11,474 nucleotides of DNA from a virus. The stretch lies in the UHGV virus genome UHGV-0044052. One strand, written 5' to 3'. A model generated the notes under the pieces. The model searched no databases. It was not told the DNA's origin and was given only the letters and a program-made list of their open reading frames with translations. This document shows positions 1-11,474 of the stretch, piece by piece. Each line of letters opens with the position of its first letter. The first letter of the stretch is position 1. The position numbers and the translations under genes were made by a program.

Positions 1-413
1 GAGATAACCTTACACTGGTAACAACGGGCGCGGTGATGCGGCATTTACGTTGGGCAATGCCGGAGGCGTTGTTGATATCAGTACGTATGAATATACCTTG
101 CTGGATAATGGCAACCATAGCTGGAGTCTCGCAGAGAATCGCGCACAAATGCCCCCTTCAACCACGGATGTGCTGAATATGGCGGCAGCACAACCGCTGG
201 TATTTGATGCAGAACTGGACACCGTGCGTGAGCGTCTTGGTAGCGTAAAGGGCGGCGATGTGGAGTTCGGCAATTAACAGCCGCAACAACGTGACCACTG
301 ATGCAGGCGCTGGCTTTGAGCAAACATTGACGGGGCTAACGCTTGGTATCGACAGCCGTTTCTCCCGTGAAGAAAGCAGCACAACTCAGGCGGGTGTAGT
401 CTGGACGTTCTGA
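1..413 (+). pseudogene. 3' remnant of an outer-membrane beta-barrel (autotransporter-like) gene, reading frame broken
   Basis: Two consecutive plus-strand frames: one runs from the window edge to the stop at 275-277, the other from ~249 to the stop at 411-413 and ends ...QAGVVWTF with alternating hydrophobic/aromatic residues and a terminal Phe, typical of a beta-barrel C-terminal strand. Continuity needs a frameshift near 250-277. Family assignment is tentative. Confidence 0.3.
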
Positions 414-473
414 TAACAGAAAATAAACAGGCCGTGATGTGTCGCTGTCTGTTTATCGAATTAAATGCAGATA

Positions 474-506
474 TAAAAAAACCAACCGCAATAGGTTGGT
501 TTTCTT
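474..506. terminator. Bidirectional rho-independent terminator
   Basis: Stem ACCAACC (481-487) / GGTTGGT (494-500) with a 6-nt loop, flanked by an A-run upstream (ataaaaaa) and a T-rich run downstream (ttttcttgggattttt), so it can terminate on either strand. Confidence 0.6.
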
Positions 507-916
507 GGGATTTTTGGTCCACGAGAGTAGTTTAATTGAGCGTGTAACTTCATGATTTAAAATAATGTATATGATTCAACTTTTAAACCGTATAACCAAA
601 CGTATAACTAAAATGATTTGCTGAAAAAATGCACAATTCAGGGTCGGATTTTCCCGGATGTTTAATTTATAAAAACGAAGCTGGTGGATGATCTGCGTGG
701 TGATTTCCACCATTCAGAGCAGGGGCGGTCATCATGCCCATGCCATAACAAAAACCCCATATTCGTGGTTTTTCTGTGTTGTGGCTATTCTGCCGTTGCC
801 GTGCTGGTGGATATTTCCGTTATGGGGATCACCATATCGGCATCATGCCCACCAGCCAGCGCAATTTTGCGCTTTGCTTTAAGTTCAGCAAGTTACCGCG
901 CCGGATTACGCCAATG

Positions 917-1101
917 GCTGTTTCCGAAAGAATCAACGGGTTAGGCCTTAATGGGCTGCGTGGTAATTATCAGCATCCAGAATATGACGGGTTATGTTTC
1001 CGACCTCCTCAATTTGAGGTTCCCGAAAATATCAACGGGTTAGGCTGGTTTCCCCGATGTTCGCCGCTGGCGAATTTCGAAAATATCAACCAGTTACCGC
1101 C
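917..1101 (+). repeat. Three imperfect ~25-bp direct repeats (core GAAA(G/A)(A/T)ATCAAC(G/C)(G/A)GTTA(G/C)(G/C)C)
   Basis: Copies at ~917-943 (ttccgaaagaatcaacgggttaggc), ~1019-1047 (tcccgaaaatatcaacgggttaggc) and ~1073-1101 (ttcgaaaatatcaaccagttaccgc). A CCTCAA-t-TTGAGG palindrome lies at ~1007-1019. No convincing ORF covers them. Confidence 0.6.
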
Positions 1102-1375
1102 GCAACCGCTCCGGCTTCTTCCAGTGGTATGTAATTTTCTCCGTTTCCCGATACAGTGCCACGCGGCGATTGTAGGCCAGCATTTCAAGAACGCGGATCC
1201 GTATGTTGCGCATATCCACATCATTAAGCTGGATACCATCACGGCGCATCACCTCAGCAACAACACGCGCATAATTTTCGGCTGTCACGCTGTCCGGCTG
1301 CGTGGCCTGTTCGTCAGTCTGCTGGCTGATTCCACCAGCACGGCGGATTAATCCCAGTATTTCGGCTTCTGTCAT
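1094..1375 (-). CDS. Hypothetical protein (93 aa) adjacent to cos A
   Basis: ORF of 93 codons with non-repetitive composition, ATG at 1375 with a weak SD. The overlapping plus-strand 191-aa ORF looks like an antisense artefact. No recognisable family. Confidence 0.45.
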   Translation of the reverse strand: MTEAEILGLIRRAGGISQQTDEQATQPDSVTAENYARVVAEVMRRDGIQLNDVDMRNIRIRVLEMLAYNRRVALYRETEKITYHWKKPERLRR

Positions 1376-1408
1376 TGTGCACCCATCGTTCTGATTGTCT
1401 GGTGTCGT

Positions 1409-1631
1409 CGGGTCCTTCCTGGAATTATGGACCCGTTACGGGGCGGCGACCTCGCGGTTTTTATCTGTTTATGAAAATTTTTCTGGAAAAAGCATGTCGG
1501 TACTTCTCGAACATAACTATTTGTTTTTAAATAGATACACAATAAAAAGAAACGACACGGTAATCATCTAAAATGGCGATTTATGACGCTTTCATGTCGT
1601 TTCTCAGTTTTGTTCAATAATTGCGCGTCTG
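1409..1631 (+). other. Lambda-type cos site (cos A): cosQ-like, cosN, cosB-like region with R-site-like motifs
   Basis: cgggtccttcctggaattatggacccgttacg | GGGCGGCGACCT (1441-1452) | cgcggtttttatctgtttatgaaaattttt closely matches the lambda cos junction as recalled. Downstream GAAACGACA (1548-1560) and TGTCGTTTCTC (1595-1605) resemble lambda cosB R2/R1 Nu1-binding sites. Confidence 0.8.
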
Positions 1632-2174
1632 TTACTCGCCTTTCTTCTGTAGCAACTTTTCCGGTACGTTTCCGGTTGTTTCTTTCAAGTAATCAGCCAG
1701 TATCTGTGGGAGGTTGTCGGCAACTCTGGCACTGGCATTACAGGCTTTAACCACTTCCCTTTTAAGCCTATCCAGCATGGCGGGGGTAATCTGTGGGAAG
1801 CTCCTTTGCATAGTAAGCGGGAGGCTGTCCATGATTGATGAAATCTGACTCGCCAGCTTTGAAAGCGCGTACAGGCAAAACTCAGTATCAATCACGTCAC
1901 CGCGATCGCGCTCGTTTTTAAGTTCCTGCGCCTCCGCCTGTGCTGTCAGTAATCTGATCCTGACTCGTAAGAGTTCATCATCATCAATATCGCCTTTGTC
2001 GTTTGTAAGCTGGCTAATTGCATTGTTAACCCTATTGTCTATCACGCTGGCAACATCGTAAAACGCCTCACGGCCTTTACGTTCAACGGGAGTCACTCCC
2101 CACTTGTCGAACGCTGTCGCACTTACACGGCAGCTTTTCGCCATGTTTTTTTTGTTCATCAGGTGCGATTTCAT
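1632..2174 (-). CDS. Terminase small subunit, lambda Nu1 family
   Basis: 180-aa product. N-terminus MNKKNMAKSCRVSATAFDKWGVTPV resembles the Nu1 winged-HTH start (VNKKQLADIFGASIRTIQNWQEQGMPV). Central LLTAQAEAQELKNERDRGDVIDTEFCLYALSKLASQISSIMDSLPLTMQRSFP aligns with Nu1 LTRAQADAQELKNARDSAEVVETAFCTFVLSRIAGEIASILDGLPLSVQRRFP. Similar length to Nu1 (181 aa). Comparison is from memory, not a search. Confidence 0.85.
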   Translation of the reverse strand: MKSHLMNKKNMAKSCRVSATAFDKWGVTPVERKGREAFYDVASVIDNRVNNAISQLTNDKGDIDDDELLRVRIRLLTAQAEAQELKNERDRGDVIDTEFCLYALSKLASQISSIMDSLPLTMQRSFPQITPAMLDRLKREVVKACNASARVADNLPQILADYLKETTGNVPEKLLQKKGE

Positions 2175-2350
2175 TAATACACCAACTTAATTACTGCTTC
2201 AGGTTGGTGTATTGTTTGCATCTTTCCCTTTTCATTCATAAAGATAGAGCAAACAACAAAACCACCACCACCCCCCTGAAAAAGCTCATAAATAGCGAAA
2301 AACCGCGAGGTCGCCGCCCCGTAACGGGCCATAATTCCAGGAAGGACCCG
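2175..2350 (-). other. Second cos site (cos B), inverted relative to cos A, directly upstream of the TerS gene
   Basis: Minus strand reads cgggtccttcctggaattatggcccgttacg | GGGCGGCGACCT | cgcggtttttcgctatttatgagc. The cosN complement aggtcgccgccc is at 2308-2319. It forms a ~54-bp near-perfect inverted repeat with 1409-1462 (one indel). The cosB-equivalent region differs from cos A and contains a 9-bp-stem hairpin (tacaccaac / gttggtgta) just before the TerS start. Confidence 0.75.
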
Positions 2351-2376
2351 CAAAAAAGCCGGATTTCTCCGGCCTT
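2350..2376 (-). terminator. Rho-independent terminator after the 137-aa ORF
   Basis: Hairpin GCCGGA-tttc-TCCGGC (2358-2373) followed on the minus strand by a T-run (plus-strand aaaaaa at 2352-2357). Confidence 0.6.
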
Positions 2377-2379
2377 GTC

Positions 2380-2793
2380 TCAGATGGTTTTCAGTATGCG
2401 ATCGATGTCGCCGTCATCGCCTGGGTTTCTGCCATCGTATGCCATGCCAGCTGATACGGTTTGTGGGCTGTGCATGTCCATAAAGTTTTCAAAGGCTGCG
2501 GTAAGCTCTGGTGCAACCTTCGGGCGTTCCTGCTCTATGGTCATGTTCAGGATGTTTTTAGCCGTATCAACATCGATACAAGGCACGTTTGCCATTGCAC
2601 GCAACAGCGGCTGATAGTCTTTATGCTCATGAAGCGCCATAATCGCATCAGCGCGCGGCTTGTCCTGCTCTTCCAGTTTGTTGAGTTGATATACGGCCTC
2701 GTAGGTTGATAAACCTCTGTCAGCCATTGCCCGCGCTTCGGCTTTAAATTTACTCGCCAGCGGTAGCGCCATGATGCTTTCATTCGTTGCCAT
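2380..2793 (-). CDS. Hypothetical protein (137 aa) in the head module
   Basis: ORF with a strong SD (GGGGGA) 4-5 nt upstream of the ATG at 2793, immediately downstream of the decoration gene. No recognisable family. Confidence 0.6.
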   Translation of the reverse strand: MATNESIMALPLASKFKAEARAMADRGLSTYEAVYQLNKLEEQDKPRADAIMALHEHKDYQPLLRAMANVPCIDVDTAKNILNMTIEQERPKVAPELTAAFENFMDMHSPQTVSAGMAYDGRNPGDDGDIDRILKTI

Positions 2794-2805
2794 CGTTCCC
2801 CCTGC

Positions 2806-3093
2806 TTATCGGGCCAGCGGCTGAACGGATACGCCAGAACCCGCAAAGGCGGCGCATTTTTTCGCATCGGTGTCGACGCTCTCAGGCCAGTTAACGGCGG
2901 CAATATTGAATATCCCCGTCTTGTAACACTGTGCTGATTTCTGCTTTGACGTGTCCACGAGGTACGAAGTCAGATAAACAGCCTTGCCAGATTCCTGACC
3001 ATCCCACGGCTTAAACTCGCCATTGTCCGCCAGCATCAGCGGCAAAATGTACCAGCGTCGTGGATACCTGCTGACTGCCTGCAAATAACTCAA
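2806..3093 (-). CDS. Head decoration protein, lambda gpD-like (start uncertain)
   Basis: LPLMLADNGEFKPWDGQESGKAVYL...YKTGIFNIAAVNWPESVDTDAKKCAAFAGSGVSV aligns with lambda gpD [27 protein letters not shown]...[35 protein letters not shown]. The ORF as drawn starts at a TTG. The only SD-preceded ATG nearby (3109) is in another frame. Confidence 0.7.
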   Translation of the reverse strand: MSYLQAVSRYPRRWYILPLMLADNGEFKPWDGQESGKAVYLTSYLVDTSKQKSAQCYKTGIFNIAAVNWPESVDTDAKKCAAFAGSGVSVQPLAR

Positions 3094-3120
3094 TGTATGG
3101 AGTGTCCATAGAATCCCCCG

Positions 3121-4176
3121 TTAAGCAATTTTGACGGTAACAAATTTGCGAATATCTGCCGGAACCGGCTGCGGTGCGCTGTGCGTCTGCACGTACTCAA
3201 TCGCCGGATCGCCGTCCTCAATCCAGTTTTTCGGGTAGTACATGTTTTGCGTTGCGCCTGTTCTTACCGCTTCCTGATCCATAATCGCACCATAGGCCAC
3301 CAGCCCTTTGTTGTTGGTGTTGCCCAGGACCAGCAAATCAGGATCAAGGAAATATTTTTCTGTGCCGTCGCTGTCAGTGTATTTGCCGGAATAGACGATA
3401 AGGGCAATATCGCCCAGATAGCCTTTAAAGCTCACCACTTCGCCCAGGTTTTTACAGGCCAGCTCTGCGGCGGACTCTGAACCACGGGAAAGATCGTACA
3501 GCTCACGGAATTTTTTAAAGCTGCGTAACGTTCGCCATACCTCAACGCCCATAATCATGACGTTTGCGGGGCAACCAGCCTGATCGGCGTATAGTTCGAT
3601 ATCATAGATTGGATCGTGGGTTTCTTTGTCCTGCTCTGACCATTTTTTCCCGTCGGCCTGCTCTATGATGTTTTTTTCCGGTATCTTCCAGTCGATTTCA
3701 TAGCGCTCTATGCCTTCGCCCTCAATGATGTTTTTTCCGGTCGTTACCGCATTTACCGCCAGCCATTCCACGCGCGCTTTTATGGCGTTTATCTGGCGGC
3801 GCATATTGCCAGTAATCAGGCGCATACGGCGATAGGTAGGGTCGTTAAGCTGTGCCGGATCTTCTCCAGCCATGCGCATGATGGTTTTCGTTGGATCGAT
3901 TTCGTGCTTTGGCTTCATGTAGCCAGGTTTAATCGTGCTGGTTTCGTACCCTTTATCGCGCTGAACCTGGCTACCCACCATAGGCGAACAAAACGCCGAC
4001 ATGGTGACTTCTTCAATGTCCAGGGTATCCAGCATGATGTTTTGCGTGTTGAATGTCGCCACGTTCGGGAAAAACAGCGCGGTAAACAGCGGACTAAATT
4101 TAAATTCCGCAATATCCTCGCGATTCAGGTACGCGAAAAGCTGGTGTGTGTTAAGTGCCATTGCTTTGACTGCCAT
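3121..4176 (-). CDS. Major capsid protein, lambda gpE-like (HK97 fold)
   Basis: 351-aa product with conserved blocks shared with lambda gpE along its length: EFKFSPLFTALFF / KFKFDPLFLRLFF, KPGYMKPKHEIDP / TPGYVKPKHEVNP, DPTYRRMRLI / DPAYRRRRII, GDIALIVYSGKY / GDVAIVVYSGQY, YYPKNWIEDGDPA / RYPKNWVTTGDPA, SAP near the C-terminus. Confidence 0.9.
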   Translation of the reverse strand: MAVKAMALNTHQLFAYLNREDIAEFKFSPLFTALFFPNVATFNTQNIMLDTLDIEEVTMSAFCSPMVGSQVQRDKGYETSTIKPGYMKPKHEIDPTKTIMRMAGEDPAQLNDPTYRRMRLITGNMRRQINAIKARVEWLAVNAVTTGKNIIEGEGIERYEIDWKIPEKNIIEQADGKKWSEQDKETHDPIYDIELYADQAGCPANVMIMGVEVWRTLRSFKKFRELYDLSRGSESAAELACKNLGEVVSFKGYLGDIALIVYSGKYTDSDGTEKYFLDPDLLVLGNTNNKGLVAYGAIMDQEAVRTGATQNMYYPKNWIEDGDPAIEYVQTHSAPQPVPADIRKFVTVKIA

Positions 4177-4382
4177 TATTCACCCCCATGAGTCTGATTT
4201 ATGCCCAGCGCCGCGCGTAAATAGGAGCGTACCTGCCAGCCTGTTGACGGCTCAACCATCGCCAGCGGATCAAGTCCTGCCGCAATGCCTGCTTTTACGT
4301 TCTGCTGGTGGCGTTCCTTGAGCGCCTTCACGATGTCGGGGCTTATGTACACCGAAACACCGCCTTTTTTCTCTTCAGCCAT
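4176..4382 (-). CDS. Hypothetical protein (68 aa), first gene of the late operon
   Basis: ORF with SD AAGAGGA upstream of the ATG at 4382. Its stop overlaps the capsid gene start (TAATG), suggesting translational coupling. No recognisable family. Confidence 0.5.
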   Translation of the reverse strand: MAEEKKGGVSVYISPDIVKALKERHQQNVKAGIAAGLDPLAMVEPSTGWQVRSYLRAALGINQTHGGE

Positions 4383-4417
4383 AGTAAGAAATTCCTCTTT
4401 GACTTAAAAAATCATAA

Positions 4418-4466
4418 CTGGATGTTCATCCAGCTCTGATTATAATCATGATTGCATTTTGTGCAA
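4418..4466 (-). promoter_or_regulatory. Putative late (head operon) promoter with palindromic operator
   Basis: On the minus strand, TTGCAC (plus 4461-4466) - 16 bp - TATAAT (plus 4439-4444), followed by the inverted repeat CTGGATG-nn-CATCCAG (4418-4433) at the predicted transcription start. An ATTGCA-n-TGCAAT palindrome overlaps the -35. Confidence 0.45.
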
Positions 4467-4545
4467 TGATGTTGAGTTGCGTTGCAAATTATGAAATGAT
4501 TATCCCGATCATGTGTGTCAGTGCACCAAAAAGCCTCATATGCAA

Positions 4546-4586
4546 AAGCCCGATAAGCCACCTCTGACCTTATCGGGCTTTTTTAT
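4546..4586. terminator. Strong hairpin, likely insulating terminator between replication and late modules
   Basis: Perfect 11-12-bp stem AAGCCCGATAAG / CTTATCGGGCTT with a T-run (tttttt) on the plus strand and a shorter U-run on the minus strand. Confidence 0.5.
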
Positions 4587-4599
4587 CTGCCTGCAAAGA

Positions 4600-4760
4600 T
4601 GTCGAACGAAAATTAACCACAACCATCATCTTTTTTGCATCAAAACAATTAAAAACAATAAATTACGCTCATGATGATGATGACGATAAAATCACAAAAA
4701 TGCGCTTTTTTCCGCGCCTCCCGCCCCGTGTTCAGGCCCACCCCGCCAGGAGGACCCGTA
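4600..4760 (-). other. Degenerate cos-like relic (third copy)
   Basis: On the minus strand, ...acgggtcctcctggcgggg...acggggcgggaggcgcgg resembles cosQ-cosN but the cosN core is disrupted (GGGGCGG-GAGG-CGCGG versus GGGGCGGCGACCTCGCGG). Downstream, atcgtcatcatcatcatgagcgtaatttattgtttttaattgtttt resembles the lambda cosB I1 region (tcgtcataacttaatgtttttatttaaaat). Confidence 0.5.
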
Positions 4761-4782
4761 AAAAAGCCGGATTGCTCCGGTT
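4758..4782 (-). terminator. Rho-independent terminator after ssb
   Basis: Hairpin GCCGGA-ttgc-TCCGG with a T-run on the minus strand (plus-strand aaaaaa at 4760-4765). About 35 bp here nearly repeat 2337-2376. Confidence 0.55.
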
Positions 4783-4797
4783 TCTGTCACTCGTCGC

Positions 4798-5220
4798 TTA
4801 AAACGGTATGTTATCCCCGTACGGATCATCATTCCCCGCCTGTTGTTTTGCCCTGTTCAGCGCGTCAGTAGCCTGGCCCTGTTGACCTTTTTTGCCGCCC
4901 AGTCGCGCCGTTCGCGCACTGATTACACTGTCTGCGATAACCTGCCAGCCCTGCCGCGTTTCTCCGTTCTGCCCAGTCCACTGGCTGATCTGCATGTTAC
5001 CCGCCACGCTCAGGAGTTCACCCTTGCGGTGCCTTTCCAGTGCTTCGGCCTGTCTGCCAAATGCCAGGACGGATAACCACATCGTCGCCGTTCCGTCATC
5101 TGCCTGGCTGCACGGAAGGGGGACCGCCATACGCGCCAGCGTCATCGGTGTGCCCTTGCTGGTCTGTTTTACCTGCGGGTCGTCCACCAGCCGCCCGTAA
5201 GCGGCTATCTGTGCTGTCAT
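4798..5220 (-). CDS. ssb: Single-stranded DNA-binding protein (SSB)
   Basis: 140-aa product with an OB-fold-like pattern (GRLVDDPQV...TMWLSVLAFGRQAEAL...KGELLSVAGNMQISQWTGQNGETRQGWQVIADSV) comparable to E. coli SSB, a Gly/Gln-rich linker and an acidic C-terminal tail ending DNIPF (SSB ends DDDIPF). SD GAGAGGTGG present. Start overlaps the upstream ORF stop (ATGA). Confidence 0.85.
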   Translation of the reverse strand: MTAQIAAYGRLVDDPQVKQTSKGTPMTLARMAVPLPCSQADDGTATMWLSVLAFGRQAEALERHRKGELLSVAGNMQISQWTGQNGETRQGWQVIADSVISARTARLGGKKGQQGQATDALNRAKQQAGNDDPYGDNIPF

Positions 5221-5495
5221 GATTCCACCTCTCCGGTTTTAACGTTGATGGTTGTTACCTGTTCCGCTTCGGCAATCTCCCGTTCTGTCAGCGTGGCAAA
5301 GTTTGCCGCTGCTGTGGTCATGAATGCGCTTATCAGGTCGGGATGTTCCTTCGCGTATCCTTCCCCTACGTGTCGGTCTATCGTTCTGATTGCCACCTTT
5401 AAAGCGTGCTCTGTCATGTCTAACGCGCGATATTTCGGTTCTGTTCTGTCTCTGCGTTTTTTGAGTGATTTATTAAATTTCCCTGAAGTGTGCAT
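5217..5495 (-). CDS. Hypothetical protein (92 aa), co-transcribed with ssb
   Basis: ORF overlapping the ssb start by ATGA, begins just downstream of the iteron region. No recognisable family. Confidence 0.5.
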   Translation of the reverse strand: MHTSGKFNKSLKKRRDRTEPKYRALDMTEHALKVAIRTIDRHVGEGYAKEHPDLISAFMTTAAANFATLTEREIAEAEQVTTINVKTGEVES

Positions 5496-5542
5496 ATTTA
5501 TTTTTACCCCCTCGTTTAAAAAGTTTTGAGTTGTGCCTCCCC

Positions 5543-5767
5543 TTGTCTACCTATCTACCTTAGTGGCCCTCATGCCAGTAATGGCGCGGCTTTCAGCGGG
5601 GTAGAGTGCTTTTATCCACTATCTACCCCGTGTCTACCTCCCTGTCTGATTCAGGTAAAATCAGGTAGAGAGGGTAGATAGTGGGTAGACAGTAAAAAAA
5701 GGCTATCTACCTAACTTAATGCACTGAATTAAATGTATTTTTCTTTACTCAGGTAGACAGGGTAGAC
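5543..5767. repeat. Iteron array, putative origin of replication
   Basis: Eleven copies of the 7-8-mer GGTAGA(C/T/G)(A) in both orientations: forward at ~5600, 5664, 5673, 5684, 5752, 5761; reverse (TCTACC) at ~5545, 5553, 5621, 5632, 5705. An AT-rich stretch lies at 5693-5750. Immediately downstream of the primase gene 3' end. Confidence 0.7.
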
Positions 5768-5782
5768 AGCCATTGCAACAAA

Positions 5783-7537
5783 TTATAAAAACGCGTCGCA
5801 ATCGTCTGTTGTTATTGCGTTAGTCTGCGTTACTCCTTTAACTTTCCGCGTAATATATTCATGTCCGTAAACTTTCGCGGCTGGCTTCATAGCCTTGCCA
5901 AAGTCATTTACGTTTAGCGGTTTGCTCCTGCCTGCGTACGCCATAAACGCCAGATAGACGCGGTAAAGGCTGTTTCTGGTCGTGTACTTCACTGAATCGC
6001 CACCGCCGCCCATCATCAGGCCGCGTGCTTCCTCCAGAAAATTCAGGAACTGGCAAAACTCAATAACCGGATCCGTCTGTTGCTTTATTGCCAGTGCTTC
6101 ATCACCGTCACGCTGTTCAATGAGTAAAGCCCGTGCCTTTTCAGGGTCGGCAAAGTTCGCCAGCAAGCGGCGGATAATGACAGGGATTTCAGCCGCGATC
6201 TTTTCCGGTAGCTCCCTGTCTTTTTCTGCCTCGCTTACGATGTTATCGAACCGGAATATCACCCGACGACGTGCCACACCTCCGGCCCGTTCGGTGAATA
6301 TCATCGGATTGTTATTGGTTGCCAGCACCACCGCCCTGATTACCGCCGTAAAACGCTTTTCATATTTCGGGTTAATTTCCACGGGGTCGCCGCCCGTGAT
6401 TTTCTTGATGCCCGTTCCTTCGCCTGTATATTTCGGCTGGTCTGCCAGGACGATAAGACGACTCCCGACAACCTGCGCACGCCCACCAGCATCATCAAGC
6501 GATGTCATTTCAGCGCTTACCGTGTTTTGTTTCCCTGCCAGAAGGCTGGCTATGTGTGTGAATGTACTTTTACCGCTCCCGCCGTCTCCGGTGGCCTCAA
6601 TAAACATCTGCCAGTCGTACCGGTTCGCCATAATCATGTACAGCGCGGCACATATACGCATCATCTTGCGCGGGTCTTTTCCGGCTGCGTGCTCAAGCCA
6701 TTTATGAAAGTTTGGCGCGTTATCGCGGATGTTCTCCCCTGGTGCTGGTGGCGTGTACTCAATGCCGTTGTGCGTGGTGATCCAGTTCTCCGGCGTGTGC
6801 GGGGAAAATTCCCCCGTTTTCAGGTCAAGCGCACCATTGGCGAACGGCAGCAAATCGCCGGACGGCTCGCCCATTGGTTCGGCAATAACTTTTAACGCTT
6901 CCACGGCGTTATTGATTACGCGCTTGCTGAAAGTGGCCCTGTGCTCTGAATAGATCGCCACCATTTCGCGGCTAAGTTCCATTGTGCTGACCGGACACCA
7001 TACCCCGCCGCGCCATACGTGAACGATTTCACTTTCAGGATGTACGCAAACGCCATCAAAGCGATCGGCAAGCAGCTGCGCGCGCTCACTGTCCGCCATC
7101 TGCGAAAGTTGCGCCTTTTGCTTTACCGGAAGCTCAATGACCAGACCATCAGAAAGATTCTGGCGCTCACGGGCCAGATATTCGCGCCAGTTCTCCACCT
7201 TCTGACCGTGCATACCATCAGGGTAAAAATTTGCATCCTGTACGCCTGCCGCCGCCAGCTTCTGACCAATCGCCTTTATCATTACTGGCGCAAGATATCC
7301 GGCCCTGAATATGCGCACGGATTTTCTGCCTTCCGGCACAATTTGCAGCTTATCCAGTTCTGATAACTGCTGCTCCCCAAGCCACACAGGAGGCTCATTA
7401 TCTCCGGCCATACGCGCATCATGTTCCTGCCATTGTTTCGCGTGTGCCCAGGCATCACTACCCGCAAAAATAATGACTTCTGTTCCTTTGTGTTTTATGC
7501 CGCGTGACTGCTGTTTTACGTTCGGTGCCAGTTTCAT
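5783..7537 (-). CDS. Replication primase/helicase (P4 alpha / D5-like, SF3 helicase domain)
   Basis: 584-aa product with Walker A GDGGSGKST in the central region and a C-terminal region plausibly DNA-binding. SD AGGGGT upstream. Start overlaps the preceding ORF stop (ATGA). Domain assignment is from motifs only. Confidence 0.8.
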   Translation of the reverse strand: MKLAPNVKQQSRGIKHKGTEVIIFAGSDAWAHAKQWQEHDARMAGDNEPPVWLGEQQLSELDKLQIVPEGRKSVRIFRAGYLAPVMIKAIGQKLAAAGVQDANFYPDGMHGQKVENWREYLARERQNLSDGLVIELPVKQKAQLSQMADSERAQLLADRFDGVCVHPESEIVHVWRGGVWCPVSTMELSREMVAIYSEHRATFSKRVINNAVEALKVIAEPMGEPSGDLLPFANGALDLKTGEFSPHTPENWITTHNGIEYTPPAPGENIRDNAPNFHKWLEHAAGKDPRKMMRICAALYMIMANRYDWQMFIEATGDGGSGKSTFTHIASLLAGKQNTVSAEMTSLDDAGGRAQVVGSRLIVLADQPKYTGEGTGIKKITGGDPVEINPKYEKRFTAVIRAVVLATNNNPMIFTERAGGVARRRVIFRFDNIVSEAEKDRELPEKIAAEIPVIIRRLLANFADPEKARALLIEQRDGDEALAIKQQTDPVIEFCQFLNFLEEARGLMMGGGGDSVKYTTRNSLYRVYLAFMAYAGRSKPLNVNDFGKAMKPAAKVYGHEYITRKVKGVTQTNAITTDDCDAFL

Positions 7538-7833
7538 TTTTTACCCCTGAATCCGTTAATCATGGTTTTCAGCTTCTGGATGTTTGCCCGTGCCCTGGCG
7601 TTGCTGGTGGGCACGTTATGCGGCGCGGTCTGTACCAGAGAAAAATCACGCCGGAACTGATAAACAGGCATCACGCAATCATATTCGTAACCTTCACGGC
7701 GGTAAGTTACGCACCGTCCCGCCACGCCCTTAATCATTACCGTGCCGCCGTACTGGTCGCGGTAAATATCGCCGCGCGTAAATTTAGGGTGAGTGTTGCC
7801 ACTGGCAGTTAAGCCAGAATATTTAAGTTTCAT
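7534..7833 (-). CDS. Hypothetical protein (99 aa), early operon gene 6
   Basis: ORF with SD GGAGAA upstream, stop overlapping the primase start (ATGA). Basic C-terminus. No recognisable family. Confidence 0.55.
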   Translation of the reverse strand: MKLKYSGLTASGNTHPKFTRGDIYRDQYGGTVMIKGVAGRCVTYRREGYEYDCVMPVYQFRRDFSLVQTAPHNVPTSNARARANIQKLKTMINGFRGKK

Positions 7834-7838
7834 TATTT

Positions 7839-8072
7839 TTATTCTCCGGTGTGCTGTTCTTTATATCTATCGTGCAATAGATCTATTTCTTGCAGTTCCA
7901 TTATTACAGGCTCAAGAAGCGTTATTAATGCCGTGGCAATTCTTGATTTTTGTTTGTCGCGTTCATTGTCGCCAAGTGTTTCAAGCCATATGCGCAATAT
8001 TTCCAGCATGTTTTCACTGTGAGAAAGTGCAAGAAATGCGCGGTCTATTGTTTCGTGGTAAATATCACGCAT
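7839..8072 (-). CDS. Hypothetical small acidic protein (77 aa), early operon gene 5
   Basis: ORF with SD ACGGGGA upstream. Upstream gene stop TAA lies 1 nt before its ATG. Acid-rich, predicted helical by eye. Confidence 0.55.
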   Translation of the reverse strand: MRDIYHETIDRAFLALSHSENMLEILRIWLETLGDNERDKQKSRIATALITLLEPVIMELQEIDLLHDRYKEQHTGE

Positions 8073-8073
8073 A

Positions 8074-8295
8074 TTAATCCCCGTCCGTCGTTTTTCTTAA
8101 AATAACCTCTGTCACGAAATCAGCATAATCGGCGGCGATATTCAGTACATCAAGCCCCGTTGATTTATATTCTCTCGTGGAAAGTAAGAAAAAAGCCGCT
8201 CTAATAAGTTCTGGCATTGACGAAAGCGCATCAGCCGCATCATCAGGAACGCCGGAAAATTCCTGTTTCAGGGAATTAAAACGATCATCACGCAT
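8074..8295 (-). CDS. Hypothetical small acidic protein (73 aa), early operon gene 4
   Basis: ATG at 8295 preceded by a G-run. Overlaps the upstream ORF by 8 nt (ATGCGTGA). Asp-rich N-terminus. An alternative in-frame ATG at 8308 would give 78 aa; the ORF track's longer start at 8343 (89 aa) is not used. Confidence 0.5.
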   Translation of the reverse strand: MRDDRFNSLKQEFSGVPDDAADALSSMPELIRAAFFLLSTREYKSTGLDVLNIAADYADFVTEVILRKTTDGD

Positions 8296-8509
8296 AACCC
8301 CCCCCATTTTCACAATCAGCAACAAGAATATTTTTAGCGTCATTCAGCGACCGTGTTGCGATGTATCGGATACATTCCAGGGCGAACTGTGTCCGGTCTT
8401 TCTGTTCTTCTCCCTGCGCAAGCTCTGCAGTGCATTCAATATCGATAAGCGCGTGCATCAGCGTAGTGAGCGCGGCGGCTGCTGCGTCCGGTGTGGTTTT
8501 ATTGCACAT
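8288..8509 (-). CDS. Hypothetical small acidic protein (73 aa), early operon gene 3
   Basis: ATG at 8509 preceded by SD GGAGGGG. Overlaps the upstream ORF end by ~11 nt. The ORF track gives a longer N-terminus (start 8563) that lacks an SD. Confidence 0.5.
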   Translation of the reverse strand: MCNKTTPDAAAAALTTLMHALIDIECTAELAQGEEQKDRTQFALECIRYIATRSLNDAKNILVADCENGGGYA

Positions 8510-8729
8510 GTACCCCTCCGCATTTTTTTTCGTTAGAAATAAGCGTTCTTCTTTCCTGTTCATCGCTCAGGAATACGCAGACCTCACCGCTAAGGCGTTT
8601 AAGTAAGCCGATGATTGCCCCTGATTCGCTGTCGGTCATCATGCCAGGGTAATCCTCTGCCAGTGCGCAAATAACTTCGATTTGGTGGGCGCGTTCTGCT
8701 GCCTGTTGTAGTGTGATTTCCTGGCTCAT
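8499..8729 (-). CDS. Hypothetical small acidic protein (76 aa), early operon gene 2
   Basis: ATG at 8729 overlaps the stop of gene 1 (ATGA). Non-repetitive composition. Confidence 0.5.
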   Translation of the reverse strand: MSQEITLQQAAERAHQIEVICALAEDYPGMMTDSESGAIIGLLKRLSGEVCVFLSDEQERRTLISNEKKCGGVHVQ

Positions 8730-8926
8730 AAGCCTACCCCCTGACGAATACGGGCAGCAAATACCATCACGCAGCCAGCCGGAGATTGCTGACGCGCTTC
8801 CTGTTCGCTGGTGGCCTCGATGGTAATCACGCGCGGTTGTGCCGTGCTCAGGGCGATAAAACGCCAGATGTATTTATTCAGGTTGTACGAGTCCCGCCCT
8901 TGCGGGTGTATGGTATAATTTCTCAT
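8726..8926 (-). CDS. Hypothetical protein (66 aa), first gene of the early operon
   Basis: ATG at 8926 with SD GAGG ~6 nt upstream. Corresponds to the 3' end of the 355-aa ORF in the track, whose 5' part is low-complexity and antisense to the RHH gene and is not used. Confidence 0.45.
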   Translation of the reverse strand: MRNYTIHPQGRDSYNLNKYIWRFIALSTAQPRVITIEATSEQEARQQSPAGCVMVFAARIRQGVGL

Positions 8927-9122
8927 AGCTGCCTCGATAATCTTGCTATCGTTGGTGGTTAGAAGCCCCGTTACTGCTCCTACAGTGCGGGGTTTCGTCG
9001 TTTCTGCACCTTGCATTAACAAGGTGTAAGTAACTTTATTTATAGGTGGCTTACATGTCAATGCTTTTATGTAAGACTTTTTATGTGTATATTGTCTTAC
9101 ACTTTCATTGAGAGGATTACAG
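8927..9122. promoter_or_regulatory. Divergent promoter/operator region (genetic switch)
   Basis: Four TGTAAG / CTTACA half-sites arranged as two inverted pairs (9025-9030 / 9050-9055 and 9070-9075 / 9096-9101; the second is GTAAGAC-N16-GTCTTAC). Palindrome CCTTG-cattaa-CAAGG at 9009-9024. Candidate leftward promoter TTGACA (plus 9057-9062) - 18 bp - TAAAGT (plus 9033-9038). Candidate rightward -10 TATATT at 9088-9093. Confidence 0.6.
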
Positions 9123-9428
9123 ATGGCTACAGGTTCAAAAAACGCAAAATCACAATCACTGACAGCTCGGATCCCGCATGATGTTATTGAAGGCATGGAA
9201 TCCGTAAAACTGGACGGTGAAAGCAACGCCGGATTCATAGTAACCGCCATGCGCGGTGAAATCGCCCGCCGCCAGGCAGAAGGAAGCGGAGAAAACCCCC
9301 TGATTTCTTCGCACGATGCACTGGCGCAGGTGGAAAAACTCGGAATCAAAGCCGCCGAGGAGATCGGGCAGCTCGTCACTGTCGCACGTGAAGAACTCCA
9401 GCGCCGCAAGACCAAAGAACCAGAGTAA
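9123..9428 (+). CDS. Ribbon-helix-helix (CopG/Arc-like) DNA-binding protein, putative island repressor
   Basis: ATG at 9123 with SD GAGAGGA. N-terminal SLTARIPHDVIEGMESVKLDGESNAGFIVTAMRGEIARR fits a beta-strand / helix / helix RHH pattern. Divergent from the early operon across the operator region. Confidence 0.6.
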   Translation: MATGSKNAKSQSLTARIPHDVIEGMESVKLDGESNAGFIVTAMRGEIARRQAEGSGENPLISSHDALAQVEKLGIKAAEEIGQLVTVAREELQRRKTKEPE

Positions 9429-9485
9429 TCACCATCAGCGCCGTGGTGTAAGGTATTACGGCGCATTGCTATGCAGGACAACACA

Positions 9486-9659
9486 ATGACCGATAAAGAA
9501 TTGACCAAAACATTATCACCGGCACGGAAAAGACGGCGCAGAAAGATAGAGCATGAATCAGAAAGATTCGCGCCATGTGCTTTTGCCCTTGAGCAATTCC
9601 TTAAAGAATACAGGGAAAAGCGCTCATTGCAGGTATGGCAACGAACTGAACCAGACTGA
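9486..9659 (+). CDS. Hypothetical small basic protein (58 aa)
   Basis: ATG at 9486 with AGGA 8 nt upstream. Contains an RKRRRRK basic patch. Alternative start at 9471 as in the ORF track. Confidence 0.4.
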   Translation: MTDKELTKTLSPARKRRRRKIEHESERFAPCAFALEQFLKEYREKRSLQVWQRTEPD

Positions 9660-9753
9660 TTGCATTGCCCACCAGCCTGATAGCGGCTATCATCCCCGTG
9701 CTTATGTTTGGGATCATATACACATAAGGCGCAGCGGGTTAATTGTTCAGAAA

Positions 9754-9781
9754 GGCGGCTCCATATCGGGGCCGCTTTTTT
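9754..9781 (+). terminator. Rho-independent terminator between convergent rightward genes and alpA
   Basis: Stem GCGGC / GCCGC (9755-9759 / 9771-9775) with an ~11-nt loop, followed by tttttt (9776-9781). Confidence 0.55.
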
Positions 9782-9807
9782 CGTGTTTGTCATATCTGTG
9801 ATACCCG

Positions 9808-10014
9808 TTAAGCAGCCGTTCCGCGTGCTTCCTGTTCGCGTTCTTTCTGCCAGGCCAACACATCATCCTCATACCATCCGCGACGGCGTAAACCAACGCG
9901 AAAACCCTGCGGAAATTCTCCGGCGTTGATCATGCTTTGCAGCGTGCTGTCTGCCTTGATGTGGATAATTTTTTTTACTTCCTGGCGAAAGATAATTTTT
10001 CTGATTGCTTCCAT
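9808..10014 (-). CDS. alpA: AlpA-family transcriptional regulator / excisionase-like protein
   Basis: 68-aa product. KIIFRQEVKKIIHIKADSTLQSMINAGEFPQGFRVGLRRRGWYEDDVLAWQ matches the AlpA/Phage_AlpA HTH pattern (K..G.R.VGW.E.EV..W). Location near a P4-type integrase is typical. Confidence 0.75.
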   Translation of the reverse strand: MEAIRKIIFRQEVKKIIHIKADSTLQSMINAGEFPQGFRVGLRRRGWYEDDVLAWQKEREQEARGTAA

Positions 10015-10087
10015 CGTGATTTACCTTGTGAATCCGGTGTATTCCGGTGACAAATACGGTAAATCATCGGATATGGGTAAAAACAGT

Positions 10088-10121
10088 TCCCACCGTTTTT
10101 AAACGGTATACACCGTTTTTA
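10088..10121. promoter_or_regulatory. Palindromic operator upstream of alpA
   Basis: ACCGTTTTTAAACGGT perfect palindrome (10092-10107) plus a third CACCGTTTTTA half-site (10111-10121), within the alpA upstream region. Confidence 0.45.
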
Positions 10122-10145
10122 TATTGATGATTTGAAATGGAATTA

Positions 10146-10170
10146 TAAAAAAAGCGGCATTTCTGCCGCT
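10146..10170 (-). terminator. Rho-independent terminator after the int-proximal small ORF
   Basis: Hairpin AGCGGCA-tttc-TGCCGCT (10153-10170) followed on the minus strand by a 7-nt T-run (plus-strand aaaaaaa at 10146-10152). Confidence 0.6.
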
Positions 10171-10180
10171 TCCAGGATTG

Positions 10181-10411
10181 TTACCGCCATTTTTTGGGCC
10201 TGCCTCCGATCTTCATAGATGCCGGACGTACGACCTTATCAATACTTACCGCCAGATTTCTGGAAGCGCCACGGGATACCAGAAAATCTACTACCTGTTT
10301 TTTTGATGGGGCCGTCGTTCTGTCCTCCGGATCGTAGGTTGACCAAAATTCATGCTGAACCATCAGGGCCAGTTGCAGCCCGTCGCAATTGCATCTGATA
10401 TTTTTTTGCAT
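10181..10411 (-). CDS. Hypothetical protein (76 aa from the first ATG) between int and alpA
   Basis: ORF with its own downstream terminator. The ORF track starts 7 codons earlier at a GTG (10432). No clear SD. No recognisable family. Confidence 0.45.
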   Translation of the reverse strand: MQKNIRCNCDGLQLALMVQHEFWSTYDPEDRTTAPSKKQVVDFLVSRGASRNLAVSIDKVVRPASMKIGGRPKKWR

Positions 10412-10509
10412 CTTAACGGTTTCATGTTTCACGGCCTTGTCGTTAAATTTGATGCAATTATACGACGGTTTTACATGGTTTTCGTAGTTTTTACTGGTTT
10501 TCTGTACAG

Positions 10510-11474
10510 CTACACGGCTCGGATACCCCTTTTACCACTGGCGAGGGTTACGCCCGTCGCCGCAGCCTCGACAAATTCGCCCCACCAGCGCATCAGCACG
10601 ATGCGTTTTTCTATGTAGTTGCTCCGGTTGTATGCCCGTCTAACTTCGTTGGTGTCGACGTGGGCAAGTGCCGCCTCTATTACGTCCGGCTCGAATCCTT
10701 CCTCGTTCGCTGCTGTGCTGAATATGGCGCGTAATCCATGAGACACCAGCACGCCAGCGAATCCCATACGCCGCAATGCTGCGTTAGCTGTCTGGCTGTT
10801 CATCGGCTGCTGTGGGTCTTTCAGACTTGGGAAAACGTAATTGCGGTGGTGGCTGATTGGTTTCATGGCCTCCAGCACCGCCATAGCCTGACCGGAAAGC
10901 GGGATAACGTGATCCCTGCGCATCTTCATGCGTCCGGCAGGTATCGTCCATTGCTTCGCGTCCAGGTTGATTTCATCCCACCGCGTTGATGACGCTTCGG
11001 CGGGACGGGTTACGGTCAGTAACTGCCATTCAATCAGTAATCTGGTCTGCCGTTCTGTTGCCGATACTGATAAAGCCTGCATAAGCTCCGGCAGCTGTTC
11101 GGGGCGGATTGTTGGCATATGTTTTTTTACAGGTGAGGGAAACGCCTTACGCACATTCATAGCCGGATTGGCATCAATCAGCCCACTGTTGGCGGCGTAA
11201 TCCATTACCTCATTAACGCGCTGTAAAACCCGCTTGAGTGTTTCCAGGTTGCCGCGCTCCTTGATGGGTGTAAGCACTTCAACGAACCTTCGGGCGGTGA
11301 GGGTATCTATTGGCGTGTTGCCGATGAACGGGAATACATATTTATCCAGCGAACGCCAGATGTCTTTAATCGTGTTGGGGGCCAGATTCTGGCTGATTTT
11401 CACCTGGTACCATGCCGCCGCCACATTTTCGAACGTGTTCCCTTGTCTTCGGGCCTCTGTCTCTCTTTTTTGCC
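10510..11474 (-). CDS. int: Tyrosine integrase, P4-type (N-terminus beyond window end)
   Basis: C-terminal catalytic region with HGLRAIFSTAANEEGF...ALAHVD...VRRAYNRSNY (conserved R, H-x-x-R and Y). The reading frame stays open upstream of the listed GTG through the window edge (...TEARRQGNTFENVAAAWYQ), matching the NTFE..A..W motif of P4-family integrase N-termini. Confidence 0.9.
   Translation of the reverse strand, partial: QKRETEARRQGNTFENVAAAWYQVKISQNLAPNTIKDIWRSLDKYVFPFIGNTPIDTLTARRFVEVLTPIKERGNLETLKRVLQRVNEVMDYAANSGLIDANPAMNVRKAFPSPVKKHMPTIRPEQLPELMQALSVSATERQTRLLIEWQLLTVTRPAEASSTRWDEINLDAKQWTIPAGRMKMRRDHVIPLSGQAMAVLEAMKPISHHRNYVFPSLKDPQQPMNSQTANAALRRMGFAGVLVSHGLRAIFSTAANEEGFEPDVIEAALAHVDTNEVRRAYNRSNYIEKRIVLMRWWGEFVEAAATGVTLASGKRGIRAV

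Follow-up and report, generated by a model that had tools for sequence, protein, structure and literature searches.

Among the phage-inducible chromosomal islands (PICIs) of Gram-negative bacteria, about three quarters of the reference elements encode a coat protein whose gene has so far shown no phenotype, a puzzle in satellite biology. In EcCICFT073, one such island, the genes c1498 and c1501 belong to a head cassette before the cos site and are labelled hypothetical proteins. In lambda, the gene for the internal scaffold Nu3 is nested in the protease gene, before D and E, and for the 201-residue protein both self-interaction and interactions with E, B and C have been reported (PMC3224144). 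Here we describe the head cassette of the virus genome UHGV-0044052, a stretch of 11,474 nucleotides that we call the window throughout, which is a classical Gram-negative PICI and a sibling of EcCICFT073. We have focussed on the two small open reading frames (ORFs) of this cassette, ORF68 and ORF137. Our overall reading, to which we give about an even chance, is that they open and close a head cassette of four genes under separate control, in which ORF137 would be a mini-scaffold and ORF68 a likely regulator.

EcCICFT073 was retrieved from CFT073 for comparison (the assignment of c-numbers follows the supplement of PMC6092414), and its gene order is nearly identical to that of the window. ORF68 is the orthologue of c1498 (94% identical) and ORF137 that of c1501 (93%), both in the same cassette and at the same position before cos, and the coat protein is 97% identical to c1499. 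The cassette and its immediate borders are laid out as follows:

4176-4382, minus strand: ORF68 (c1498 family, phrog_3255), 68 amino acids; first gene of the cassette, satellite-specific and translationally coupled to the capsid gene
3121-4176, minus strand: major capsid protein of the lambda gpE family, 351 amino acids (Pfam Phage_cap_E, E 3e-52; 44% identical to lambda gpE)
2806-3109, minus strand: head decoration gene of the lambda gpD family, frameshifted (Pfam HDPD, E 9e-14 on the 95-residue remnant)
2380-2793, minus strand: ORF137 (c1501 family, phrog_1999), 137 amino acids; stand-alone, truncated Nu3-type scaffold protein, as judged by homology
2440-2664, minus strand: residues 44-118 of ORF137, the part homologous to Nu3/gpC (one C-terminal repeat unit, known from phage 21 gene 6 as the 'Tri box', plus a tail)
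2352-2373, minus strand: GC-rich hairpin GCCGGAgaaaTCCGGC followed by T6, resembling an intrinsic terminator as read from the sequence; it starts 7 nt past the ORF137 stop and is the putative end of the cassette
2308-2319, minus strand: cosN GGGCGGCGACCT, the same as the lambda cohesive end (by comparison with the lambda left end), flanked by the cassette terminator and the Nu1-like terS gene

The ORF68 ATG (at 4382) lies 9 nt past AAAGAGGAA, and its TAA stop shares one base with the ATG of the capsid gene (gaaTAATGgca), for which the Shine-Dalgarno sequence is GGGGGTG. ORF137 starts at 2793, 12 nt past the decoration stop, in the Shine-Dalgarno context cAGGGGGAacg. Both the coupling of the 68-residue ORF ahead of the capsid gene (the TAATG overlap) and the strong ribosome-binding site of the 137-residue ORF behind the decoration gene (AGGGGGA) had been proposed in the first-pass annotation of this DNA and are borne out. 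The order ORF68, capsid, decoration, ORF137 is constant in the related loci that we collected, 80 IMG/VR contigs plus CFT073, all with an ORF68 match (n = 81), and the ORF68/capsid junction is equally constant. ORF68 is full-length in all 81, and ORF137 in 69 of the 77 loci scored. Pairwise ratios of non-synonymous to synonymous substitution (dN/dS) are 0.26 (ORF68) and 0.28 (ORF137), compared with 0.14 and 0.13 for the capsid and decoration genes. Both small ORFs are genuine genes under purifying selection and form part of a conserved cassette with its own control region. In CFT073, c1498-c1501 are reported to be jointly induced on a shift to 37 C (PMC12890032), which is consistent with a single transcription unit.

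Profile comparisons show that ORF137 contains the C-terminal module of Nu3 and gpC, and we take it, by this homology, for a shortened, free-standing relative of the internal scaffolds of lambda type. When the ORF137 family was aligned by hhalign with four Nu3 C-termini, the probability was 97.1% (E 5.1e-11, 74 columns, ORF137 residues 44-118). Residues 117-200 of lambda Nu3 match phrog_1999 (E 2.7e-26), which is the family of ORF137 itself (E 4e-65), and ORF137 matches the C-terminal region of phrog_53, a family of head-maturation proteases (E 2.7e-9). The ORF137-family profile, run against 1.84 billion representative proteins, gave 13 matches in all, and the non-trivial ones, P0077 (E 2e-8), P0078 and P0081, are C-termini of scaffolds or proteases of the Gifsy-1/phage 21 type. 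The first of them, P0077, shares 55% identity with the gpC C-terminus of Gifsy-1 and matches phage 21 gene 5/6 as well as phrog_8399, a 'head scaffolding protein' family (E 1e-34). By pairwise BLASTP the match between ORF137 (residues 51-136) and Nu3 is marginal (E 0.06). Pfam, NCBIfam and PDB sequence searches with ORF137 returned nothing, and a tblastn search of 50,697 phage records returned no match.

The region homologous to the C-termini of lambda Nu3/gpC, phage 21 gp6/gp5 and Gifsy-1 gpC consists of two parts. One is a repeat of ca. 40 residues, called 'Tri box' in phage 21 records, of which a repeat-unit hidden Markov model finds one copy at ORF137 residues 48-82; lambda also has one clear copy, whereas proteins of the Gifsy-1/phage 21 type have three. 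A second, degenerate unit that we considered at ORF137 residues 4-14 was not significant. The other shared part is the tail FE.FM..HSP..V.AG, and the acidic-hydrophobic extreme C-termini also align in BLASTP (DIDRILKTI versus AVNDLLNT). Nu3 aligns with ORF137 from about its residue 119, the N-terminal half (lambda residues 1-118) being absent from ORF137, where it is replaced by 43 residues that match nothing in Nu3 and that are kept in the divergent homologue P0076. Like the lambda-type scaffolds, ORF137 is encoded in a head operon alongside coat and decoration genes of E and D type. Unlike Nu3, it is free-standing and encoded after E and D, not nested in an S49 prohead protease gene, and its host satellite, in contrast to lambda, has no portal or protease gene. 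The AlphaFold2 model of ORF137 is all-helical but too poor for a fold search (predicted local distance difference test, pLDDT, 46), and this low-confidence model is compatible with a flexible scaffold.

Many members of the ORF137 cluster carry the NCBI name head-tail connector protein (P0001, P0006, P0007 and others were so named at the source), and the name could be read as a function. We find this very improbable, as no connector family of Pfam, NCBIfam or PHROG matches ORF137, and the name most likely derives from 'head-tail preconnector', an old label for lambda gpC/Nu3 and phage 21 gp5/gp6 that still stands in phage records for the homologous region. The proteins of the c1501 family, now labelled either 'hypothetical' or, misleadingly, 'head-tail connector', thereby gain a practical annotation. 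None of the papers that could be searched assigns c1501 to Nu3 or discusses c1498, and a stand-alone Nu3 module in a satellite with its own coat and decoration genes would, on the homology described, be new.

The module common to Nu3 and gpC is probably what brings the two proteins into the growing shell. From this presumed role it would follow that ORF137 binds the inner face of the coat protein, most likely that of the island's own diverged coat protein, as a matched mini-scaffold that the protease of the helper would clear. The first-pass annotation had found neither small ORF to resemble W, FI, FII or Nu3 and had proposed both as scaffold-like candidates. For ORF137 the lack of resemblance does not hold at the level of profiles, and the scaffold proposal gains the Nu3/gpC C-terminal domain; for ORF68 the lack of a match to lambda head proteins stands, and no evidence for a role in capsid assembly was found.

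ORF68 has no match in Pfam, NCBIfam or PDB sequences, nor by tblastn in the 50,697 phage records. Since neither small ORF was found there, both families appear restricted to satellites at the sensitivity of tblastn. BLASTP of ORF68 against gpW gave no alignment, and with the profile of the ORF68 family (phrog_3255, E 1e-36 for the protein of the window) every lambda head protein scored below 1 bit. The family is restricted to satellites of Enterobacterales (Escherichia, Salmonella, Pluralibacter and Edwardsiella). A Gelidibacter protein, the only return of a scan with one genome per species, was a spurious match. Similarly, the PerC similarity of one family member (P0098) is due to a natural deletion that fused perC to the C-terminus of ORF68 before the coat gene, and not to homology. 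Members of the family always stand directly before an E-type coat gene, across satellites with different replication modules.

The AlphaFold2 model of ORF68 (pLDDT 74) has helices at residues 15-34, 39-42 and 47-59 after 14 unstructured N-terminal residues, and the most conserved segment across genera is the strand-like GGV(S/T)VYISPDIV followed by a helix. A fold search with this model gave no significant match, and NikA, 'ribbon-helix-helix' and antitoxin proteins were over-represented at the top of the non-significant lists. The sole Pfam families touched by the ORF68 family, both below threshold, are BrnA_antitoxin (E 0.017, residues 4-24; 15.9 bits, where the cut-off is 26.1) and RHH_1 (E 0.13). 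In either case the match was seen with 3 of the 14 members. The ORF68 of the window itself matches no ribbon-helix-helix family, and the curated thresholds are not reached anywhere in the family. Regulators of this type (CopG/Arc/BrnA/NikA) have, like ORF68, a short N-terminal strand-like segment and then two helices; compared with typical members, ORF68 has a longer first helix and a larger loop between the helices, and the match is not significant. Because several weak signals agree, a ribbon-helix-helix-type DNA-binding fold is the most likely single assignment for ORF68, although we would put it well short of an even chance.

A further likeness to such regulators is the place of ORF68 as the first gene of an operon beside a presumed palindromic promoter, to which it is predicted to bind. 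The elements that we recognise upstream of ORF68 are these:

4404-4467, minus strand: conserved regulatory region, from a reading of the sequence, with a presumed promoter function
4451-4467, minus strand: perfect palindrome ATTGCA-N5-TGCAAT, ATTGCAcaaaaTGCAAT, a candidate operator conserved in four genera
4439-4444, minus strand: TATAAT, putative -10 element
4410-4441, minus strand: hairpin with a 14-bp stem and a GAAC loop, starting inside the TATAAT and followed by a T-run at 4404-4409

The 110 nt before ORF68 are more conserved than the proteins, being kept in the satellites of E. coli, Salmonella and Pluralibacter despite ca. 60% protein identity, and the palindrome and TATAAT are kept, together with the ORF68 protein, in Edwardsiella as well. 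Salmonella and Pluralibacter have a shorter stem of CTGGAT type and Edwardsiella no clear hairpin, and among the E. coli loci there are two-sided compensatory changes at stem pairs 4 and 6 (C-G to T-A and T-A to C-G). Transcripts arriving from upstream would meet the full terminator, while those from the putative promoter would begin inside the stem. ORF68 may most likely be a ribbon-helix-helix-type regulator acting on this palindromic promoter just ahead of it, an assignment for which the indications are weak.

Further upstream, the SSB gene of the window is followed by a terminator (CCGGAGCAATCCGG plus a T-run) and then by a degenerate cos-like tract, ACGGGTCCTCCTGG...CACGGGGCGGGAGGCGCGG, that resembles the surroundings of the true cosN (both in the interval 4700-4780, minus strand). 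EcCICFT073 and many relatives have a gene for a PerC-family regulator between the SSB gene and the cassette, which is absent from the island of the window (window 4383-4800 compared with 4960-5208 of L003).

The main alternative to a regulator is that ORF68 is a direct partner of the coat protein. It would be a chaperone, trigger or inhibitor of assembly, made in a fixed ratio through translational coupling, that keeps the satellite coat separate from, or compatible with, the assembly of the helper. We consider this possible, if clearly less probable than our overall reading. The stop of ORF68 strictly overlaps the start of the coat gene in E. coli and Pluralibacter, in Edwardsiella and in one Salmonella satellite (in a second one, 5 nt separate the two genes), and ORF68 is found wherever a satellite-type E-like gene is seen, even without ORF137. 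Two satellites with ORF68, coat and decoration genes lie inside the head operons of lambdoid prophages (L089, Edwardsiella tarda, 1-9120; L090, Salmonella, 1-10555), where one adjoins a truncated portal gene and the other stands directly before FI. In both of these helper prophages E is preceded by a D gene and not by an ORF68-like gene, as would be expected of a partner specific to the satellite coat. On the other hand, ORF68 has neither homology nor a fold match to assembly proteins, nor any similarity to lambda head proteins, and tight co-evolution with the coat would not predict two classes of ORF68 alleles, 69% identical, on coat genes that are ca. 95% identical.

These allele classes are either at least 91% or about 69% identical to the ORF68 of the window (from a comparison of loci L064-L088 with L009-L063), both with the same upstream region, and their occurrence on ca. 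95%-identical coat genes implies a recombination boundary at the ORF68/coat junction.

Several observations weigh against a cassette with its own mini-scaffold and regulator. The link of both small proteins to the coat protein is one that we infer from sequence. A narrow ORF137 profile built only from E. coli gives lambda Nu3 just 9 bits, which is not significant, and the relationship with Nu3 rests for this reason on intermediate sequences and on profile-profile comparison. In 8 of 77 loci ORF137 has been shortened or lost, and there are natural in-frame variants of 93 residues (among P0028, P0030 and P0031) that lack residues 21-64, the deletion falling between two RAMA motifs. In the cassettes of Salmonella and Pluralibacter its place is taken by an unrelated ORF of 77-79 residues, and no ORF137-like gene was called in the two satellites embedded in helpers, from which it follows that the scaffold is not a universal part of the kit. 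Finally, the cassette was dispensable in published work, which leaves its selective benefit unexplained. The ORFs of 77-79 residues do look like relatives of the Nu3 tail by eye; hhalign gives this a probability below 1% and we have discarded the idea.

Small satellite proteins that redirect the size of the helper capsid offer a different model. CpmB of SaPI1, reportedly described by Dearborn and colleagues in 2017, is said to be an internal scaffold of the satellite that competes with the scaffold of the helper. Compared by description only, CpmB and ORF137 are both small helical satellite proteins that would engage the coat in the manner of a helper scaffold. CpmB acts on the coat of the helper and leads to small capsids, whereas the island of the window has a coat of its own and its close relative packages only phage-sized DNA. 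Other satellites redirect size by a homologue of the coat protein (Ccm). ORF137 might mimic the capsid-binding end of the helper scaffold and compete with it as CpmB does, producing, with or without ORF68, small capsids or a poisoned helper assembly; that ORF137 has exactly the C-terminal module of helper-type scaffolds suits this logic.

The experiments published on EcCICFT073 make such a role quite improbable. In a lambda lysogen with EcCICFT073 all packaged DNA was phage-sized, the source leaving unstated which marked island was used, and deletion of c1499 (capsid) or c1500 (decoration) changed neither transfer nor the interference with lambda (PMC6092414). Of the genes past the origin, expressed one at a time, c1503 (RppA) was the only one to interfere with lambda (PMC6739421). 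With cas9 or melA in place of c1498-c1501, islands could still be packaged and transduced by phi80, the text consulted giving no quantitative comparison (PMC10530653, PMC10460865). The helpers used were lambda, phi80 and one CFT073 prophage only, and the text consulted describes no single in-frame mutant of c1498 or c1501. We had suspected that the marker 'c1501::tetA' interrupts the orthologue of ORF137, in which case the published absence of small capsids would have lost its force. The primer sequences place tetA immediately past the c1501 stop codon, which leaves the coding regions of the cassette intact in the tetA-marked island, and the suspicion was dropped.

Judged by the published orthologues, which are 93-97% identical, the cassette is accessory: it is unneeded for phi80-mediated transfer, and with lambda no small capsids were seen. 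The first-pass annotation had supposed that the element must combine its own capsid protein with the portal and protease of a helper, which the unchanged transfer after deletion of c1499 does not support, and it had suggested a role in determining capsid size, which does not agree with the phage-sized DNA. It had also said that a deletion without effect on packaging or particles would speak against its proposal, and for the nearly identical genes of EcCICFT073 this is largely what has been reported.

A cassette that can be dispensed with might also be debris, a captured fragment of a lambdoid head operon in which ORF137 is the leftover stump of gpC/Nu3 and both small ORFs are functionless. The retention of only the C-terminal 40% of Nu3 and the eight loci with damaged ORF137 fit this view, as does the state of the decoration gene in the window. 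There, 32 bp have been deleted between two 15-bp direct repeats (CCGCTGATGCTGGCG, junction at about 3028-3042), which puts the gene out of frame past codon 27 and brings a stop after codon 32. The gene is a pseudogene in the window copy, which corrects the picture of the first-pass annotation and differs from EcCICFT073. Apart from this one 32-bp gap, the DNA is 100% identical to the island at tRNA-Pro/yejM of E. coli Nissle 1917, ATCC 25922 and relatives, and the Nissle 1917 and ATCC 25922 copies encode an intact decoration protein of 111 residues; of 5,426 complete E. coli genomes compared, those that matched best were all free of the deletion.

Decay is nevertheless hard to reconcile with the purifying selection on both small ORFs and with their being full-length in most (ORF137) or all (ORF68) of the loci scored, or with a regulatory region conserved in four genera. 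ORF137 has a strong Shine-Dalgarno sequence of its own and a conserved N-terminus that does not come from Nu3. The order of the genes is also unlike that of lambda, with E before D and the scaffold last, which argues against the simple capture of a block. We therefore regard functionless cargo as improbable, and rate it, together with size redirection or interference and the head-tail connector, below a mini-scaffold combined with a regulator.

If ORF137 is a matched mini-scaffold and ORF68 a regulator, the cassette might be a working satellite 'shell kit', in which ORF137 would let the coat of the island nucleate on the portal/protease initiator of the helper while ORF68 switches the kit on. 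The heads would be chimeric, with shell and decoration protein from the satellite and portal and tail from the helper, and the benefit conditional. This extension is a speculative one that we hold as rather unlikely. The benefit could arise with helpers whose head genes are defective or interrupted, as where satellites sit inside the B, C or E genes of the helper, or it could be an escape from host defences that sense the helper coat protein. With a benefit of this conditional kind, it would be understandable that deletions made in the laboratory had no effect with lambda and phi80. A matched Nu3-type domain, a partner gene found only in satellites, a regulatory region shared by four genera and purifying selection together speak for a cassette that works as a unit and against debris, and they make the puzzle of the satellite coat genes testable.

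The rest of the window is that of a typical PICI, with an integrase at a tRNA site, an alpA-type regulator, a D5-type primase, a cos site and a length of about 11-12 kb. Portal, protease, large terminase and tail genes are lacking, and none of the 10 major ORFs scanned matched Peptidase_S49 or portal families. All substantial ORFs are on the minus strand, in the series tyrosine integrase (cut by the end of the window), AlpA-type regulator, D5-type primase, SSB, ORF68, coat, decoration, ORF137, Nu1-type small terminase and an ORF of 93 residues. The last of these (1094-1375, minus strand; phrog_1561, function not known) is kept after the slot of cos and terS in most related islands, with a dN/dS of 0.24. 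The slot itself contains, besides the cosN at 2308-2319:

1632-2174, minus strand: Nu1-like terS, 180 amino acids, 35% identical to lambda Nu1
1441-1452, plus strand: second copy of cosN GGGCGGCGACCT, inverted relative to that at 2308-2319

A PDB sequence search with the TerS protein returned nothing. The main difference between the two islands lies here, as EcCICFT073 carries the 144-residue RppA after cos and the window the Nu1-like TerS. The gene between the cos copies is exchangeable on a cassette that is otherwise at least 90% identical (L009-L088), with a Nu1-like TerS in 31 loci, RppA in 21, or neither. The two cosN copies flank terS in inverted orientation with ca. 66 bp of flanking identity, and the second is followed by lambda-like repeats (GAAACGAC / GTCGTTTC). 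An inverted pair of cosN is likewise present around rppA in EcCICFT073 and in 41 of the 62 related loci that were tallied.

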